This document shows, piece by piece, positions 24,829-55,360 of a DNA stretch of 64,000 bases. Position 1 is the first letter of the stretch; each line of letters begins with the position of its first letter. The stretch covers positions 1,836 to 65,835 of the forward strand of contig JAFXVM010000003.1 in NCBI GenBank assembly GCA_017524525.1, written 5' to 3'. The notes under the pieces are model-generated. The model saw only the letters and a list, made by a program, of their open reading frames with translations, had not been told where the DNA came from and did not search any database. Position numbers and translations under genes: made by a program. The stretch comes from Alphaproteobacteria bacterium (GTDB lineage Bacteria > Pseudomonadota > Alphaproteobacteria > Rs-D84).

Positions 24829-25078
24829 AATATATCGTTTTATCTTGCCTTGCGTTTGCGTCTAAAATTCACCAGATTAATAATCTTTTTTTGCTTTTTT
24901 TCATAGTCAATTGTGATACCTGTGACACACAAATTGTACAAAAATTTTTCTAAACGCTGCCGAAAGTTAGTATCTTTTTTGTGTTTCATCATAAAATCTT
25001 TGGTTATTTTACCATTTCATTATTAACTACATAAAAGTCTTTGTCAATAAACAGCATATATTAAATAAAAAATAATAT

Positions 25079-25106
25079 TTGCATTTTATAAAAATATAGT
25101 TATAAT
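25079..25106 (+). promoter_or_regulatory. Sigma70-like promoter of tRNA-Pro
   Basis: TTGCAT, 16 nt spacer, TATAAT, ending 12 nt before the tRNA 5' end. Confidence 0.5.
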
Positions 25107-25118
25107 GAATTTCGTTTT

Positions 25119-25195
25119 CGGGGCGTAGCTCAGTCTGGTAGAGTACTTGGTTTGGGACCAAGGTGTCGAAGGTTCGAATCCTTTCGCCCCGACCA
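25119..25195 (+). tRNA. tRNA-Pro (anticodon UGG), CCA encoded
   Basis: Hand-folded cloverleaf: CGGGGCG/CGCCCCG acceptor, GCTC/GAGT D stem, CTTGG-TTTGGGA-CCAAG anticodon arm, GAAGG-TTCGAAT-CCTTT T arm, then ACCA. Confidence 0.93.
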
Positions 25196-25398
25196 GAAAA
25201 TTCAAACCACCACTTTTGTGGTGGTTTTAATTTTCTCTAAAAAGGGGCGAAAGGATGCGCCAGAGCGTCAGGCACATTTATGTGCCACAAATTGACGCGC
25301 ATGGCGTATACGCAGACGAACAATTAACAACCATTCAAAAACGGATATATTTAATAGAGTTTTTGTTTATGGTTGGTTTATTGTTTGTCAAGGAGAAA
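25196..25398 (+). repeat. tRNA-proximal ~0.2 kb module, copy 1 (homologous to 54052-54267)
   Basis: Shares these elements in the same order with the tRNA-Gln copy: aaaattcaa-hairpin-ttttaatttt; an inverted copy of the tRNA 3' end (ggggcgaaaggat at 25244-25256); core tacgcagacgaacaattaa (17/19 identical); and end ttattgtttgtcaagg (15/16). Confidence 0.75.
25204..25234 (+). terminator. Intrinsic terminator after tRNA-Pro
   Basis: AACCACCAC-TTTT-GTGGTGGTT followed by TTAATTTT. Confidence 0.75.
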
Positions 25399-25419
25399 TC
25401 GCCCCGACCAGAAAGTTAA
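25255..25419 (+). CDS. Candidate 54-aa small protein with a hydrophobic C-terminal helix, inside the tRNA-Pro module
   Basis: AAAGGGG lies 7 nt before the ATG. MRQSVRHIYVPQIDAHGVYADEQLTTIQKRIYLIEFLFMVGLLFVKEKSPRPES. The TAA stop is followed by the hairpin at 25421-25445. The D-x-H...YADE-x-L stretch is conserved in the tRNA-Gln copy with three synonymous third-base changes, but that copy has ACG instead of ATG. Confidence 0.25.
   Translation: MRQSVRHIYVPQIDAHGVYADEQLTTIQKRIYLIEFLFMVGLLFVKEKSPRPES
25399..25414 (+). repeat. 16-nt direct repeat of the tRNA-Pro 3' end (att-like)
   Basis: tcgccccgaccagaaa is identical to 25184-25199. Confidence 0.85.
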
Positions 25420-25522
25420 AGACCGCTTATCAGAGCGGTTTTTCTTTTGTATTCCAATATCTTCGCTGAGTTCGAGAATTAAGTTTTTGGGAAGTACTGT
25501 TTTTTTGCTATTGTTCGAACTC
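25406..25522. repeat. Terminator-associated repeat, copy A
   Basis: Hairpin ACCGCT/AGCGGT plus a T-run, conserved spacer cttttgtattccaatatcttcgct, then long-range stem gagttcga...tcgaactc. The 45-nt core is 42/45 identical to copy B. Confidence 0.75.
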
Positions 25523-25528
25523 GTTATA

Positions 25529-26317
25529 TCATTTTTCATGCATATTATAAAACATTTTTATTAGTTTTCTTATATCTTTATCCATATATTTCTTTGCATT
25601 TGCGATTATATTAGTTGGGATTTTAAATCTTAATTCTGCCAGTCCACCTGCCATACATGCCAAAGTATCGCTGTCACCACCCAAGGACACAGCGTTTCGC
25701 AAAGCATCTTCATAAGAACATGCATCTAGTGCACAAATAATTGCCTGAGGAACAGAATTTTTACATTGCACATAAAAACGATTATATAATGGTCTGATTT
25801 CATCCAAACTTTGATGTACATTATATTGATATTTATCACTTATGGTTTCTTTTATTTGGTCTATAGGAATTAAATTTTGAATCATGAAACCTGTTTCAAG
25901 ATAAGCATGAACTGCATTTAAACTTTCCGGATGATTATGTGTAATTTTTGTAATCTCGTCCGCTTTTTTAAATAAACATTGTTGATCGTGGTTTATATGC
26001 AAAAGCGGACTTATACGCATAACACAACCATTAGAACTAGAATTTATAGAAACACCAGTATTAACCCATTGCAAAAAACCTTTACCAAAAGCACCTATTT
26101 CACCATTTTCGTAGGTACGATTTTGATATTTCAAAGCCCATTTACGCAATGTTTCTTCGATTGATAGTTTTGATATTAAATGTTCAGCAACCGCACAAGT
26201 CAAAATAGTATCATCTGTAAAACAGCAAGATTCATCAAACAATGAAAAATCCTTAGTTTTGATGTTATGAAATTCAAAACGCGAACCAACTATATCACCA
26301 ATAATAGACCCAAGCAT
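25529..26317 (-). CDS. ADP-ribosylglycohydrolase family protein
   Basis: N-terminal MLGSIIGDIVGSRFEF, FTDDT, and C-terminal GGDSDTLACMAGGLAE motifs of the ARH/DraG fold. Confidence 0.85.
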   Translation of the reverse strand: MLGSIIGDIVGSRFEFHNIKTKDFSLFDESCCFTDDTILTCAVAEHLISKLSIEETLRKWALKYQNRTYENGEIGAFGKGFLQWVNTGVSINSSSNGCVMRISPLLHINHDQQCLFKKADEITKITHNHPESLNAVHAYLETGFMIQNLIPIDQIKETISDKYQYNVHQSLDEIRPLYNRFYVQCKNSVPQAIICALDACSYEDALRNAVSLGGDSDTLACMAGGLAELRFKIPTNIIANAKKYMDKDIRKLIKMFYNMHEK

Positions 26318-26435: not shown

Positions 26436-26550
26436 GACCAGAGAGTTCAAACCGCTCGTCAAGAGCGGTTTTTCTTTTATATTCCAATATCTTTGCTGAG
26501 TTCGAAACCACACTTTTTTGAAAGTGCTGTTTTTTACTTAATTTCGAACT
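26436..26550. repeat. Terminator-associated repeat, copy B
   Basis: gaccagagagttcaa, hairpin ACCGCTC/GAGCGGT, T-run, cttttatattccaatatctttgct, then stem agttcgaaa...tttcgaact. The distal arm overlaps the last codons of the 26538 gene. Confidence 0.75.
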
Positions 26551-48994: not shown

Positions 48995-51900
48995 TTAGAA
49001 ATTATATCTAAATTTCAACATACCTGTTTGAGATGTATAATCTTTGCGGACATCAATATCATAGTTGATAGAGAAATCAAATCCACGATATTTCATACCC
49101 AAACCGATACCGAATTCGCCACCGAATCTGGATAATCTTTCAACATCCAAAGTATATGCATCTACACCTGGCATTGTAATAGTTGCAACATTTTTATCTG
49201 ACAACATATCGTATTTTATCGCCGCATTTAATTGTGGGATAAATGTTGTATATCTGTCAGCAATTACACTGAACGCATATTTTGCACCCAAAACGCCAGT
49301 CAAGAAATTTGTATTATCAGACTTTGTTTTGACCCCCAAAGAATTGGTATAATCGTCAGCCATTACATGCATATAACGCAATCCCAATTCTGGAGTTAAA
49401 CCGAAATCTAAATCATACCCAGTTGCAACACTCATTCCAAATGAATCTACATCGAAATCAGCAGTCACAGGTGTTCCCATTGCATCACCCTCTTCTGAAT
49501 AATCAGACATAGTGTAATGTGCAACGGCGTTCACATACCATGCTGCCGGTTTATATTGACCATAAAGGAATACAGTGTTGCTGTCGATTTCTGTATCACG
49601 CACAGAACCAGAGATATCAGAATGAGCATAAGAATAACCTGCCCCCACTGTCCAAACTCTGTTCATTGTGCCATCTAACCCAGCAGCGATTCCACGAGTA
49701 TAACCGCGGAAAGCGTCGTTTTGTTTTGATTTGTTGAACAAACCTTGCGCCCAAACACCACCACTGGTCATTGTGATATCACCACCATTACGTCCAATAG
49801 TTGGCGCAGCCATACGTGCAGATGCCAAATTTGCTACAGTTGTTTGAACTGAACTTGCCACAGATTGAGTGACAGATTCTTTTTCTGGATGAACAGCTTT
49901 GGCTGCATGTTCCACTTCATGTTTTGCTTCTGGTGTTCCTTCTGCCAATTTTTCTTGGATTTTAACACCCAAATCATTCAGCTTTTCAGAAGTAGATGCA
50001 TTCAAACCAACAATCGCTTTGGCTGCATCTTGTTCGATATCATTTTGTTCAGCAATATCAGCAGCAGATTTCATCGTTGCAATCAAATCTTTGTTGCCTT
50101 CTGCCCAAGTGATATCATACACAGAACTTGTTGCATCGATACCAGCCGCTCTGAACGCAGCATCACCGAACACATGATAAGTTCCTTCGCCTGCAAAAGA
50201 CAATTTCAAAGTTCCATTACCATCGAAAGTTCCTGCTGTGATTTGAGCATCACCATTACGCAAAGTCGCCAACATTGTCCCGTCCAATGTAATGGTTCCC
50301 TGTTCTATCGTTGAAGTACCGACATTCAAAGTTGCACCATTTGCAATTGACAATGTTCCATCACCAGTAATACCACCATCCATTGTGGTTGTCCCACTTA
50401 ACACATTCACAATCCCAAGATTATGAATATCATTGGCGATACCATTTGCCATATTACCCGAGAAAACCAAATCACCAGCAAAGTTAACTACAGCAGCCCC
50501 TTTGTTGTAAATAGCGCCACCTGCCAAAGTTGCTGTGTTGTTCGAAAACACGCCACTATTGAAAGTCGCGACTGCAACCCCATGATTTACCAGAGCTCCG
50601 CCGATTCCATCTGTTACATTTGCTTTATTACCACTAAATGTTACATTTGAACCAAATATAATATTACTGTTTCCATTATAGATTGCAGTACCTGTATTAT
50701 CTGCAAAAACAGCATTTTTACCTATTGTTACATCATCACCATATAACCTAATGGCAGCAGCTCCAGTAGCACTAGTAATTGCATTATTAATGAATTTTGC
50801 ATTATCACCGATTGTAACCGTCGAATTACCAGCACCAGTACTTGATGTTCTTATCCCAGCAGCTTTTTGAGATGAGTTTCCGCTAAATTCAACATTGTCC
50901 CCAATAGTGACATTATTCGCATTCAAGAAATATACATTACCAAAAGGCGAATAATTATTTGTAAATTTAACATTATCGCCAATAGTAACAGTTCTGGTTG
51001 CGCCGGTACCTTCTGAATAAATTGCAGCACCCATTTCAGAACCGCCAGATGTGACATCTAAATCCCCTTCTTTTATAAATGCTTTGTTATTATCAAATGT
51101 CACATTATTACCGATGGTTAAATTACCATAGTTCGCAATAGCTCCACCTTCTACATTTGCATAGTTCCCAGCAAAAGTTGCGCCATCACTTACAGTAATC
51201 ATACCATTATTATATATGGCACCACCATGGAAAGCAGTATTGTTATCAAATCTACCGCCAACTGTTAAGGTTCCACTATTATATATGGCTCCGCCTTTAC
51301 CATCAGCGTAAGTTGCCAATGTGTTTTGTGAATTTGGTGTATAAATTCCATTGGCTTTATTACCAGAAAATACCCCGTTTACCAATGTCATAGTATCCGC
51401 GTTAAATATCGCACCACCATTACGACCAGCTGTATTACCAGTGAATGTTGTTGCACCGTTTATAACAAAATCAGCACGACCCACCGTATTGCCTTTTGGT
51501 GCCACACTATTCCAAATAGCACCACCATCTAAATCTGCATGGTTAGTTGTAAATGTTGTTGTTCCGTTAATTGTAACATCAGAATCTTGATTTTGCCCAT
51601 CATATGCACGTGCAACAATCGCGCCACCATGTGCTTTTGATGTATTCGACGTAAATTCATTTGTTCCATTTGTTACACCAATAACCAATGTCGCAGTACC
51701 TGCTTGACCACGGTTATGAATCGCACCACCACCACTTTTTGTAGCGCCAGTATCTTTTGCTTGGTTACCTGTGAAAATATTTTCATTACCTAAAACACTC
51801 AAATCACCAGCATTAAATATCGCCCCACCATAACCAGCATTAGCAATATTATCAATGAAAGAAACTTTGTTCGCTGTGAATGTAACGGTTCCCCCGTTAT

Positions 51901-52993
51901 CAAACGCACCAGCAGAACTTATTGTTGTATTTTCCTCAAACAACACATTACCATTTGTATTAACTGTCACAGTACCAGCATTTTTTAATCCGCCACCGTT
52001 ACCACCTGTATTGCTTGTAAAAACAAAATTACCTCCATTTAAACTGATACTGCTATCGGCGGCATTTATCAAAGAACCATTCGCGGCACCATTTGTATTA
52101 TGATTAAATGTTGCACCATTGTTAAAGACAATATGATTGTTACTGCCGTTCGTCATCAATGTACCAGTACCAATATTGTCTTCAAACGTTGCAGCACCAT
52201 TAAATGTAATATCACTAGCACCAGTAGCAAATATAGCAGAAGCGGAAGACGCTTCATTTTCTGTAAACGTTGCTGTGTCATCAAATGTTATATGCCCCCC
52301 CATAGCAGCTATCGCACCACCACTAGAAGACGCAGTATTTGCATTAAACGTTGCGACATCATTAAACACCATATCACCCGTTGAAATTATTGCGCCCCCT
52401 TTGGATGCAGAAGTATTTTGACTGAAACTTGCAACATCATCAAAAACTATCATGCCACCATGGTGATGAATCGCACCACCGCCTATTATGTCAGCATTCA
52501 TAGAACCTGTTGCAGAATTTCCTGCGAAAGTTACAGCTTCATTAAATTTGATATCTGGCGATTCTAAATTTCCAAGACCATAATTAAATATCGCACCGGC
52601 ACCATTTGCACTATTTGAGGTGTTATTTGTGAATGTTGTAACGCCATTAAAAACAATTTTTCCACCAGGTGTATATTCTGGATATACATTAACATCATGT
52701 GTTGACAGCCAACCACTTCCTATTGCTCCACCCATACCACCATTTATCAACGAATTTCCTGTGAATGAGGTTGTTCCATTGAATGTCAAGGTAACATCCT
52801 GAACATCTTCCATATAAAACACGGCACCATTATTAGCAGTAGATTCTGCAATATTAGAAGCTGTTAAATTATCATATGTAGTGTTATCTGTAATAACATG
52901 TCTAGAATCTACAGTATCCGCCATCGCAGGCATGATTGCCAATGCTGGTAATACAGAAACACCCATTAAAAAATTGTGAAATTTTTTATTCAT
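48995..52993 (-). CDS. Autotransporter with a polymorphic-membrane-protein (Pmp-type GGA[ILV]/FxxN) repeat passenger
   Basis: Start set at MNKKFHNF (AAAGGAG upstream). Signal peptide ...MPAMA. More than 15 GGAI and more than 20 F-x-x-N motifs in register. C-terminal beta-barrel ending KFRYNF. Confidence 0.9.
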   Translation of the reverse strand: MNKKFHNFLMGVSVLPALAIMPAMADTVDSRHVITDNTTYDNLTASNIAESTANNGAVFYMEDVQDVTLTFNGTTSFTGNSLINGGMGGAIGSGWLSTHDVNVYPEYTPGGKIVFNGVTTFTNNTSNSANGAGAIFNYGLGNLESPDIKFNEAVTFAGNSATGSMNADIIGGGAIHHHGGMIVFDDVASFSQNTSASKGGAIISTGDMVFNDVATFNANTASSSGGAIAAMGGHITFDDTATFTENEASSASAIFATGASDITFNGAATFEDNIGTGTLMTNGSNNHIVFNNGATFNHNTNGAANGSLINAADSSISLNGGNFVFTSNTGGNGGGLKNAGTVTVNTNGNVLFEENTTISSAGAFDNGGTVTFTANKVSFIDNIANAGYGGAIFNAGDLSVLGNENIFTGNQAKDTGATKSGGGAIHNRGQAGTATLVIGVTNGTNEFTSNTSKAHGGAIVARAYDGQNQDSDVTINGTTTFTTNHADLDGGAIWNSVAPKGNTVGRADFVINGATTFTGNTAGRNGGAIFNADTMTLVNGVFSGNKANGIYTPNSQNTLATYADGKGGAIYNSGTLTVGGRFDNNTAFHGGAIYNNGMITVSDGATFAGNYANVEGGAIANYGNLTIGNNVTFDNNKAFIKEGDLDVTSGGSEMGAAIYSEGTGATRTVTIGDNVKFTNNYSPFGNVYFLNANNVTIGDNVEFSGNSSQKAAGIRTSSTGAGNSTVTIGDNAKFINNAITSATGAAAIRLYGDDVTIGKNAVFADNTGTAIYNGNSNIIFGSNVTFSGNKANVTDGIGGALVNHGVAVATFNSGVFSNNTATLAGGAIYNKGAAVVNFAGDLVFSGNMANGIANDIHNLGIVNVLSGTTTMDGGITGDGTLSIANGATLNVGTSTIEQGTITLDGTMLATLRNGDAQITAGTFDGNGTLKLSFAGEGTYHVFGDAAFRAAGIDATSSVYDITWAEGNKDLIATMKSAADIAEQNDIEQDAAKAIVGLNASTSEKLNDLGVKIQEKLAEGTPEAKHEVEHAAKAVHPEKESVTQSVASSVQTTVANLASARMAAPTIGRNGGDITMTSGGVWAQGLFNKSKQNDAFRGYTRGIAAGLDGTMNRVWTVGAGYSYAHSDISGSVRDTEIDSNTVFLYGQYKPAAWYVNAVAHYTMSDYSEEGDAMGTPVTADFDVDSFGMSVATGYDLDFGLTPELGLRYMHVMADDYTNSLGVKTKSDNTNFLTGVLGAKYAFSVIADRYTTFIPQLNAAIKYDMLSDKNVATITMPGVDAYTLDVERLSRFGGEFGIGLGMKYRGFDFSINYDIDVRKDYTSQTGMLKFRYNF

Positions 52994-53062
52994 TATGAAA
53001 ACTCCTTTCTTCATACGATTGGAATCGTATTACATTATTTTTACATTGTCAATCTGCGGCAT

Positions 53063-53977: not shown

Positions 53978-54051
53978 TGGGGTATAGTTTAATGGTAGAA
54001 CAGCAGACTCTGACTCTGTATATCGCGGTTCGAGTCCGTGTACCCCAACCA
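53978..54051 (+). tRNA. tRNA-Gln (anticodon CUG), CCA encoded
   Basis: Hand-folded: TGGGGTA/TACCCCA acceptor, GCAGA-CTCTGAC-TCTGT anticodon arm, CGCGG-TTCGAGT-CCGTG T arm, then ACCA. Confidence 0.9.
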
Positions 54052-54267
54052 AAAATTCAAGCACCCTTTTGGGTGTTTTAATTTTTGGTTATTTGGGCGT
54101 AACGAGACGAGAACCGCAGGTTCGACAAGCAGTAGATTTTGGAAGTGCAACGCACCAAAATCGTTACGATTGCCACGCAAGCGAGTACGCAGATGAACGA
54201 TTAAGAAAATTTACAAAAATCGAAGTTCACGAAATTTTTTTTATTTTATTTATTGTTTATCAAGGCA
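54052..54267 (+). repeat. tRNA-proximal ~0.2 kb module, copy 2 (homologous to 25196-25398)
   Basis: aaaattcaa-hairpin-ttttaatttt. Inverted degenerate copy of the tRNA-Gln 3' half at 54093-54117 (18/25). Core tacgcagatgaacgattaa at 54186-54204. End ttattgtttatcaagg at 54250-54265. Confidence 0.75.
54059..54085 (+). terminator. Intrinsic terminator after tRNA-Gln
   Basis: CACCC-TTTT-GGGTG followed by TTTTAATTTTT. Confidence 0.7.
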
Positions 54268-54283
54268 CCGTGTACCCCAACCA
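54268..54283 (+). repeat. 16-nt direct repeat of the tRNA-Gln 3' end (att-like)
   Basis: ccgtgtaccccaacca is identical to 54036-54051. Confidence 0.85.
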
Positions 54284-54311
54284 CACTTCGCGTCTGCGAC
54301 GCTTCGTGTGG
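54281..54311 (+). other. Perfect compound hairpin
   Basis: CCACAC-TTC-GCGTC-TGC-GACGC-TTC-GTGTGG. Confidence 0.6.
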
Positions 54312-54349
54312 CAGCCCACGCGGACGGAGCAGTTATCACGAAGTAGTGT

Positions 54350-54373
54350 CACACGAAGTTTTAACGAAGTGTG
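54350..54373 (+). repeat. Stem-loop with conserved 14-nt loop GAAGTTTTAACGAA (copy 2)
   Basis: CACAC-gaagttttaacgaa-GTGTG. The stem covaries relative to the copy at 11060-11085. Confidence 0.6.
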
Positions 54374-54387
54374 GCGGACATAAGCAA

Positions 54388-54487
54388 CCGTTCGTTTCAG
54401 AGCGGGTTTTTGTTTGTTTTCTAATACTTTCACCGAGTTCGAAAGTTAAAATTAAAAAAGTGGCGATTTTTCGCCACTTTCGAACTC
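54388..54487. repeat. Terminator-associated repeat, copy C
   Basis: Hairpin CCGTTC/GAGCGG plus a T-run, spacer ttttctaatactttcacc, and long-range stem gagttcgaaag...ctttcgaactc enclosing hairpin GTGGCGA/TCGCCAC. Confidence 0.7.
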
Positions 54488-55183: not shown

Positions 55184-55360
55184 ATGAATTCTTATGACCA
55201 AGCCGTTAATTTAGTAAAAACAACAAAAAACGCGACCATATCTTTTCTTCAACGCAATTTGAATATCAGTTATAACAAAGCCGCTGAATATTTAAACCAA
55301 ATGGAAAAAGCGGGTATTGTTTCACCAATGAATGCCGAATTCAAAAGAACTGTTCTTTAA
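55184..55360 (+). CDS. Stand-alone FtsK-gamma-like winged-helix DNA-binding protein (58 aa)
   Basis: Not in the ORF track (<60 aa). RBS AAGGAAGG. ATISFLQRNLNISYNKAAEYLNQMEKAGIVSPMNAEFKRTVL matches the FtsK gamma pattern S-x-LQR-x-L-x-IGYNRAA-x-L-x3-E-x2-GIV...R-x-VL. Confidence 0.65.
   Translation: MNSYDQAVNLVKTTKNATISFLQRNLNISYNKAAEYLNQMEKAGIVSPMNAEFKRTVL

Follow-up and report, generated by a model that had tools for sequence, protein, structure and literature searches.

A structured 215-bp cassette docked behind tRNA-Pro in an Enterousia-like alphaproteobacterium and its putative GIY-YIG nuclease partner

The window analysed here is a stretch of 64,000 nt (64 kb) from contig JAFXVM010000003.1 of the Alphaproteobacteria assembly GCA_017524525.1. 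In it, an intact tRNA-Pro(UGG) gene is followed by a gene-less segment of 215 bp, the cassette (25196-25410, or 25200-25414 in the equivalent register), whose parts are listed in Table 1. A second copy of the tRNA 3' end closes the segment: the 64 kb contain exactly two instances of TCGCCCCGACCAGAAA, one at 25184-25199 and the other at 25399-25414, and two matches were found in 0 of 100 dinucleotide shuffles. This direct repeat can be extended to 22 nt at 91% identity. An exact 13-nt inverted copy of the tRNA end is also visible (25244-25256, the complement of ATCCTTTCGCCCC), likewise found in 0 of 100 shuffles, and it lengthens to 16 nt at 94% complementarity. The terminator hairpin behind the tRNA is lengthened by its A/T-rich flanks to 19 + 19 nt (95%) and forms, together with the tRNA end and the inverted copy, a long imperfect palindrome. 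Near the right boundary, TTATTGTTTGTCAAGG is located at 25378-25393. A preliminary description of the locus had named six features, and all six are present where it placed them.

Table 1. Features at the tRNA-Pro locus of the window and the sister module at tRNA-Gln (position 1 is the first letter of the window)
Feature	Positions	Strand	Remarks
Promoter-like TTTGCA-17-TATAAT ahead of tRNA-Pro	25078-25106		
tRNA-Pro(UGG), intact, CCA encoded; docking site	25119-25195	+	ARAGORN; Rfam RF00005, 66.5 bits
Direct repeat, copy 1: last T-stem base, acceptor 3' strand, ACCA, trailer GAAA	25184-25199	+	
Extended bidirectional terminator-like hairpin from the cassette	25195-25236	+	GC stem 25204-25227; flanks AAAATTCAA/TTTAATTTT pair
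Antisense copy of T-loop end, T-stem 3' strand and acceptor 3' strand of the tRNA	25244-25259	+	
Arm P2	25255-25309	+	outer helix 25255-25262/25302-25309, conserved GAG/GCA internal loop, variable inner hairpin
Junction ACGCA	25310-25314	+	part of the ACGCAGA block, invariant in 36/36 aligned copies
Arm P3	25315-25389	+	helix GACGAACAAT (25315-25324) with ATTGTTTGTC (25380-25389), enclosing hairpin C (25328-25375)
Family signature TTATTGTTTRTCAAGG (16-mer)	25378-25393	+	right-end motif common with GIY-YIG cassettes (L070, L277, L293, L286)
Linker AGAAA	25394-25398	+	in the family 5-8 nt, specific per tRNA type
Direct repeat, copy 2: displaced tRNA 3' end, right boundary of the cassette	25399-25414	+	empty-site comparison
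Second terminator	25418-25443	+	in the empty-site relative L197 its homologue directly follows tRNA-Pro
Palindromic unit GAGTTCGA...TTCGAAC, outside the 215-bp cassette	25468-25520	+	again at 26498-26549 and 54435-54487
Sister module at tRNA-Gln(CUG)	53978-54283	+	same part order as the Pro module

The segment is an insertion that leaves the tRNA intact and is bounded by a target-derived direct repeat. The preliminary description had proposed a search for a relative with an empty site, and one was found in RUG12675 (locus L197, with a PHP neighbour 63% identical to that of the window), where tRNA-Pro is directly followed by the second terminator and the GAGTTCGA palindrome; its alignment with the window leaves one gap of 215 nt. 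A different occupant is present in another relative (L194, PHP neighbour product 92% identical), where behind tRNA-Pro there stand another terminator, its own antisense copy and a module of a different type. Among the contigs with exact copies of the PHP protein, the two long ones have the same layout as the window and the three short ones break off near the tRNA. The cassette turns over between close relatives and forms arrays, tandem or mixed, in which module types stand together with other short units. At least 10 copies lack an intact tRNA, and their left bound is a tRNA 3' fragment starting at the T-loop or T-stem.

A scan with the gapped motif ACGCAGAYRAAC-N35-65-TTGTTTRTCAAGG over one genome per species (185,579 species) returned 82 loci in 59 metagenome-assembled genomes (MAGs), usually with two or three matches per MAG; the further copies that the preliminary description had suggested looking for therefore exist. 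The 82 loci and the window's two copies make up the 86 copies considered below. All 82 loci belong to gut, rumen or faecal Alphaproteobacteria MAGs, many of them named Candidatus Enterousia. A same-strand tRNA lies at most 1.5 kb upstream of 68 of the 86 copies, and nine tRNA species are used: Gln(UUG) and Glu(UUC) with 15 copies each, Arg(ACG) with 11, Tyr with 8, Gln(CUG) with 6, Pro with 5, and three Ser species with 8 together. The family is thus restricted to gut and rumen 'Ca. Enterousia'-like Alphaproteobacteria and docks at tRNA 3' ends. Numerous contigs, of MAGs and of metagenomes, end inside or next to modules (L194, L218-L220, L060, L073, L135, L150, L183, L188), and the module repeats probably break short-read MAG assemblies.

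The order of the parts is the same across the family: terminator hairpin, antisense tRNA end, two-arm fold, TTATTGTTTRTCAAGG, a linker of 5-8 nt, and the acceptor 3' strand with NCCA. Lone modules finish 158-231 nt (median 172) past the tRNA, and distances of 350-600 nt correspond to arrays. An exact direct repeat of the copy's own tRNA, at least 10 nt long, follows CAAGG and the linker in 44 of the 68 tRNA-linked copies, and in 53 of them the terminator is followed by an inverted match to that tRNA, exact over 8 nt or more. The identity tracts of the direct repeat measure 12-25 nt, with a left edge 0-5 nt into the T-stem. At one locus (L130), the module ends match each other and not the tRNA. 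Modules of a second type, ..GAGAACCGCAGGTTCGAC.., contain a hairpin, GATTTTGG...CCAAAATC, that covaries, and they end in a copy of T-loop, T-stem and acceptor. Their 5' domain is common with the window's Gln module, and a 70-nt unit, CTATGAGTAGCAGAGCG.., is also found inserted directly after CCA; the second type, this unit or both occur in L182, L153, L126, L073, L169, L185, L018 and L019.

The interior of the module is under structural constraint. In alignment A2, which holds 36 copies, the blocks GGAT, AGAG, GCA, AATACGCAGA and TTGTTT-TCAAGG are invariant or nearly so, and the stems between them differ in sequence. RNAalifold predicts arm P2, with its outer helix and variable inner hairpin, and arm P3, in which the helix GAUGAACAAU/AUUGUUUAUC surrounds hairpin C; compensatory changes are present in 22 of the 38 pairs. 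A closing helix, P1, is formed in the window by the first 7 nt of the antisense copy (25244-25250) and 25399-25405. For P1, P2 and P3 together, 91% of the cells are paired, versus 35-46% after sliding of the partners by 1-3 columns, and the covariation score is 0.376 versus 0.05-0.08, a value reached by 0 of 500 shuffles. Changes on both sides are seen in 7 of 7 pairs of P2 (helices 2 and 3), with 93-94% of the cells paired. In P3, a switch between C-G and U-A covaries (8 of 36 copies), and a G:U pair is retained in 31 of the 36 copies, which therefore places the fold on the + strand, the tRNA-sense strand. P1 keeps a length of 7-9 bp even in copies whose second repeat has diverged from the tRNA sequence, for example those at Gln(UUG); since the tRNA is the source of both strands in P1 and in the long hairpin, part of their covariation is built in. 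The terminator stems also vary in sequence between copies and retain their pairing. The Pro copy of the window folds as P1-P2-P3 at -70.6 kcal/mol (z = -9.5), with a GGCACA-TTTA-TGTGCC hairpin (25271-25286) inside arm P2. P3 domains with 95-98% identity are attached, in different MAGs, to the ends of Pro, Tyr and Glu and to differing P2 domains; the family is therefore mosaic.

The parallel module that the preliminary description had noticed at tRNA-Gln is real, though its 5' domain differs from that of the Pro module. It consists of a terminator, an inverted copy of the whole T-arm and acceptor, the different 5' domain and P3, with the 16-mer at 54250-54265 and the direct repeat CCGTGTACCCCAACCA at 54268-54283. 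Both window copies have TACGCAGAYGAAC and TTATTGTTTRTCAAGG in common, and the Gln copy folds with P1 and P3 as in the Pro copy around the other 5' domain. The likeness of the two loci runs past the second repeat, through the second terminator and the GAGTTCGA...TTCGAAC palindrome. This was not predicted by the simple attL/attR picture drawn earlier and corrects the preliminary description on this point.

With Rfam 15, only the tRNA rises above the gathering threshold at the Pro locus, and nothing more does at the Gln locus; matches below the threshold, ranked by E-value, included nothing relevant. The phage and plasmid collections gave no blastn match and the viral contigs no exact match of the gapped motif; the 17-mer matches in viral contigs all lie in unrelated coding sequence. 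Clustering of the genes around the copies revealed housekeeping synteny only and no recurrent neighbour family. The literature searched on Enterousia, on miniature integrative elements, on tRNA-linked structured RNAs and on GIY-YIG genes behind tRNA genes does not describe the family, so that the modules and their fold appear to be undescribed.

The tRNA ends of this clade also receive a second kind of cassette, of about 0.45 kb, with an 81-aa open reading frame (ORF) that contains a GIY-YIG domain (PF01541, E = 8.5e-17, the only Pfam match) and has SLX1 and UPF0213 as its closest solved relatives. In L165, which belongs to the same MAG as L194 and is close to the window, the CCA of tRNA-Gln(CUG) is directly followed by a repeat-rich leader of about 90 nt, the ORF, and TTCATCAAGG with a tRNA-like end. 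The ORF was further found in L179, L181, L180, L173 and L070. At L070 the order is the CCA of tRNA-Ser, leader, ORF, TGA, TTATTGTTTATCAAGG, aaaggaa and TCACCATCCGC, the last being a copy of the tRNA-Ser end, and L277 and L293 have this layout at tRNA-Ser(CGA). At tRNA-Gln in L221-226, the stop codon of the ORF is followed by TTTATCAAGG and TCTCGTGCGCATTCCAGAGAG. A start right after CCA and a right end made of 16-mer, linker and direct repeat are thus found in L070, L277, L293, L221-226, L165, L179 and L181. The sequence of the tRNA-Gln(UUG) loci is the same from TTTATCAAGG on, including the downstream palindrome, both in those with a module inside (L001, L019 and others) and in those with the nuclease cassette (L222-226). 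Module and nuclease cassette are therefore alternative occupants between shared flanks at tRNA-Gln(UUG), and they are alternative occupants at the tRNA-Ser loci as well. They stand in series in L179, and a deletion between the two right-end repeats of this locus would give the odd second repeat GTGCGCATTCCAGAGAG of 20 Gln(UUG) modules.

A genome search with the ORF alignment returned more than 528 relatives. Among the best 80 (loci L221-L300) there are 56 whose ORF starts less than 400 nt, and nearly always 90-170 nt, after a same-strand tRNA; the 80 span Alphaproteobacteria, Verrucomicrobiota, Babeliales, the candidate phyla radiation (CPR) and others. The leader of the nuclease gene starts at CCA and contains a covarying long-range helix, NNCTTCGC...GCGAAGNN, and a GTCCNCCGAAGCCTTGGCGAAGGNGGAC hairpin; it matches no Rfam family. 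Comparison of contig accessions placed the ORF in 11 module-bearing MAGs as well. The association between tRNA genes and small GIY-YIG genes was not turned up in the literature searched.

The cassette is best explained as a non-autonomous, tRNA-docked element mobilised in trans, probably by the GIY-YIG nuclease and homologous recombination, a reading to which we assign a probability of about 0.55 and whose last step we infer. A miniature non-autonomous element mobilised in trans had been one of the two possibilities raised in the preliminary description, and it fits a gene-less, multi-copy segment with a target-derived repeat, an intact tRNA and an empty site. The cassette leaves the tRNA intact and supplies it with a new terminator. 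The module would be moved or exchanged by the nuclease in trans, with the help of host homologous recombination: repair of a break at or close to the tRNA 3' end, with a copy that bears the cassette as template, would amount to a homing-like gene conversion, in which the tRNA may act as the left homology arm and the 16-mer, the repeat and the downstream unit as the right one. The conserved single-strand fold could be a cis element needed by this machinery or by the transcript. Action of a nuclease together with recombination would explain the alternative occupants, the mosaic domains, the variable edges of the identity tracts and the absence of an integrase.

Several points weigh against this explanation. 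It does not account for the appearance of new tRNA-specific direct and inverted ends when a new tRNA is occupied. The putative link between module and nuclease consists of the shared site and right end, and the nuclease family is far wider than the module family, hence it has no need of the module. No GIY-YIG ORF was found in the 64-kb window by tblastn. The role of the conserved fold could lie in an RNA that serves the host and not in mobility, and the 36 aligned copies represent a few related subfamilies, so that the covariation counts overstate the number of independent events. Finally, the check for an integrase was a local one, a motif regular expression run on loci of up to 8 kb.

That check bears on the explanation preferred in the preliminary description, namely a miniature integrative element in the sense of the cis-mobilisable elements (CIMEs), with a tRNA-specific tyrosine integrase, encoded elsewhere, that would recombine an attP-like circle with the tRNA 3' end, and the repeat as its attL/attR core. 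The direct repeat of the tRNA 3' end, the regenerated tRNA and the replaced terminator agree with it, as do accretion arrays at one site, including the toxin-antitoxin pair of L189 and the gene cassette of the window described below; the repeats that P4-type integrases of Alphaproteobacteria leave at tRNA 3' ends measure about 17 bp. We nevertheless regard this explanation as unlikely, and no evidence was found for the tyrosine-recombinase footprint proposed in the preliminary description. A crude, local scan for tyrosine-recombinase motifs, covering all ORFs from 100 aa upwards in the window, the 82 family loci and four PHP-neighbour loci, revealed none beside modules; it returned two XerC/D-like genes only, both in module-less loci. 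Pfam searches of the window neighbours yielded no recombinase, and no long version of the element was found among the 82 loci. Nine core sequences would call for many integrases or for one very relaxed enzyme, and the identity tract has a left edge that shifts by 0-5 nt between copies. Moreover, attP arms do not have covarying helices, the antisense copy is unexplained and reaches T-stem sequence that is missing from the cassette's own repeat, and the phage, plasmid and viral collections contain no matches. An extreme deletion scar of a larger tRNA-integrated island, the other possibility raised initially, is far less probable still: the tRNA 3' ends of the clade do gather remnants such as tRNA fragments, truncated modules and an ORF-less leader, but an architecture of about 170-230 nt is kept in 86 copies with conserved structure, compensatory changes and invariant motifs, and no larger parent was found.

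The fold itself may be read differently, as a host-serving RNA of about 170 nt with a three-way junction, an acceptor-like closing helix and an NCCA end, matured by tRNA enzymes, the repeats then being functional mimicry. The strong compensatory covariation and the invariant junction nucleotides speak for such an RNA, as do the G:U pair conserved on the tRNA-sense strand, a P1 of 7-9 bp despite the diverged second repeat of the Gln(UUG) copies, and the ends of L130 that match each other. On the other hand, a good intrinsic terminator separates the tRNA from the module, and no convincing promoter of its own is present, the only internal sigma-70 match being a weak one at 25324-25351. The module is missing at the orthologous site of L197 and replaced by another in L194; its arrays, truncated copies and mosaic domain swaps look like mobile DNA, no Rfam family is known for it, and its right end is common with a protein-coding cassette. 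A host RNA thus seems improbable, about to the same degree as the integrase-borne element. There is next to no chance that the segment is an ordinary tRNA trailer or terminator with chance repeats: the palindrome is partly a bidirectional terminator with pairing A- and T-tracts, but the 16-nt direct and 13-nt inverted repeats are absent from all 100 shuffles, the family extends over 59 MAGs, and an empty site exists.

Rejected candidates include a protein-coding 54-aa ORF ('YADEQL', 25255-25419), which carries a 1-nt indel in frame between L001 and L086 and differs downstream in the Gln copy. A transfer-messenger RNA (tmRNA), or a two-piece tmRNA with the tRNA as acceptor piece, is not compatible with the lack of a T-arm and of a tag frame; the permuted tmRNA model scored 12.4 bits against a gathering threshold of 47, and ARAGORN detected no tmRNA. 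Group I introns, T-boxes, hammerhead and other ribozymes gave no Rfam signal. A cis-regulatory leader was dismissed since the downstream genes are convergent at both window loci (Pro and Gln), and a phage or plasmid origin since those collections contain no match. The bridge RNA of IS110, the PATE and omega RNA of IS200/IS605 and retrons were set aside for lack of an associated gene, loops too small for guides and a repeat too long for IS605-type ends.

Among known systems, CIMEs and integrase-less islets resemble the module in their position at a tRNA 3' end, the regenerated tRNA, the direct repeat, the tandem accretion and the lack of own genes. The module differs from them in that neither a cognate integrase nor a full-length parent was found, and in its nine matched targets, covarying fold and additional antisense copy. 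The miniature transposable elements with inverted repeats known as MITEs and the REPIN/RAYT systems are likewise short, gene-less, multi-copy and structured, with a presumed enzyme elsewhere. The modules lack their transposon-type terminal inverted repeats and any association with a DDE or HUH gene, have repeats of variable length, and target strictly tRNA 3' ends in one orientation. Integrons and attC sites also form arrays of small units at one anchor, with a folded imperfect palindrome at the end and structure kept over sequence; here the anchor is a tRNA gene and no IntI-like motif lies near any copy, so that the likeness is one of layout only. As in tmRNA and tRNA-like RNAs, there is an acceptor-like closing helix and a 3' NCCA, and the arrangement, with the acceptor 3' strand ahead of a spacer and the acceptor 5' strand behind it, is reminiscent of permuted ssrA genes; in contrast to tmRNA, the module has no T-arm, no G3:U70 pair and no tag frame.

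Nuclease-based systems offer closer comparisons for the partner enzyme. Free-standing GIY-YIG homing genes, like segB in the tRNA cluster of phage T4, are small nuclease genes among or beside tRNA genes, and if they spread by cleavage and gene conversion, this would account for the alternative occupants found between the same flanks. Seg proteins and I-TevI have a DNA-binding domain and about 200-250 aa, whereas the ORF here has 81 aa and the window module has none, and homing normally does not create target-derived direct and inverted repeats. Measured against a homing cassette, the window module encodes no nuclease, and its insertion site and flanks match those of nuclease-encoding copies. 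The Ssn enzymes are single-domain GIY-YIG proteins that cut single-stranded DNA (ssDNA) beside oriented hairpin repeats flanking their own genes; the Ssn/NTS repeats, 28 nt long, cluster around certain genes, and tRNA is not mentioned in that paper (Chenal et al. 2025, PMC11893778). Common to both are a small single-domain GIY-YIG gene flanked by oriented hairpin elements and gene-less copies scattered beside variable cassettes. By analogy with Ssn, a strand-specific single-strand structure is plausible here. The modules differ by their length of about 200 nt with several helices, and the nearest solved relatives of the nuclease are SLX1 and UPF0213. The published SRM motif, HGTCWY..RNCYNB, has 0 matches in the window and 2 across all 80 GIY loci, and the pattern does not fit here.

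As a more tentative extension, doubtful at present, the tRNA 3' ends of this clade could be docking platforms for cassette exchange by a structure-specific or single-strand-specific single-domain GIY-YIG nuclease, with the gene-less modules as its riders. The module fold and the long hairpin of tRNA end and antisense copy would then be ssDNA recognition elements. If true, this would be a class of mobile elements without transposase or site-specific recombinase, and such platforms may be widespread for nuclease cassettes. If the favoured reading of the cassette holds, the tRNA genes of these reduced-genome gut bacteria would be hotspots beyond the classical integrase islands, with a separate traffic of tiny cassettes made up of structured modules without genes, genes for the 81-aa nuclease, a toxin-antitoxin pair and single genes. 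Apart from this, the analysis yields a new conserved fold of nucleic acid, about 130 nt long, which covaries well and belongs to no Rfam family, a candidate partner enzyme from a barely characterised GIY-YIG branch, and small GIY-YIG genes about 100 nt behind tRNA genes in several phyla, with a conserved folded leader ahead of them.

Other short units accompany the modules in the window. The GAGTTCGA-N-TTCGAAC unit occurs three times (0 expected by chance), always with TTC(C/T)AATA..TTC.C ahead. Its copies at 25468 and 54435 flank the second repeat of a module on the 3' side, and the copy at 26498 follows a tRNA-like ...GACCA end behind an ADP-ribosylglycohydrolase gene. Related copies were seen after the right end of the GIY-YIG cassette in L221 and after the unoccupied tRNA-Pro of L197. 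The ADP-ribosylglycohydrolase gene (25529-26317, minus strand) is bracketed by direct repeats of about 85-115 nt (25405-25520 and 26436-26549), composed of a tRNA-like ...GACCAGARAG end, a terminator, TTCCAATATCTT.GCTGAGTTCGA and the palindrome; it looks like a single-gene cassette in a tRNA-Pro-anchored array. Arrays with a spacing of 0.8-1.2 kb that resemble this layout are present in L146 and L165. In L189, tRNA-Arg is separated from its module by an insert of 800 bp, which has GGGTGCGCCA and AGGGCGCGCCA at its bounds and carries a toxin-antitoxin pair, RelE/ParE-like and HigA-like as read by eye.

Around the Gln module, a repeat-rich leader, CACTTCGCGTCTGCGACGCTTCGTGTGG...CGAAGTGTGG, lies at 54284-54373, directly after the CCA of the second repeat. 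It is identical at 89 of 90 positions to the leader ahead of the ORF in L165, and the GIY-YIG ORF is gone. Further downstream, a 58-aa ORF (55184-55360) corresponds to a lone FtsK gamma domain, the KOPS-binding domain (PF09397, E = 1.8e-19), and overlaps the start of a 299-aa ORF without Pfam match. About 1 kb upstream of tRNA-Gln there is a repeat-rich, autotransporter-like ORF of 1339 aa (48995-53014); a 1020-aa ORF with a near-identical N-terminus adjoins a Gln(UUG)-type module without intact tRNA in L173.

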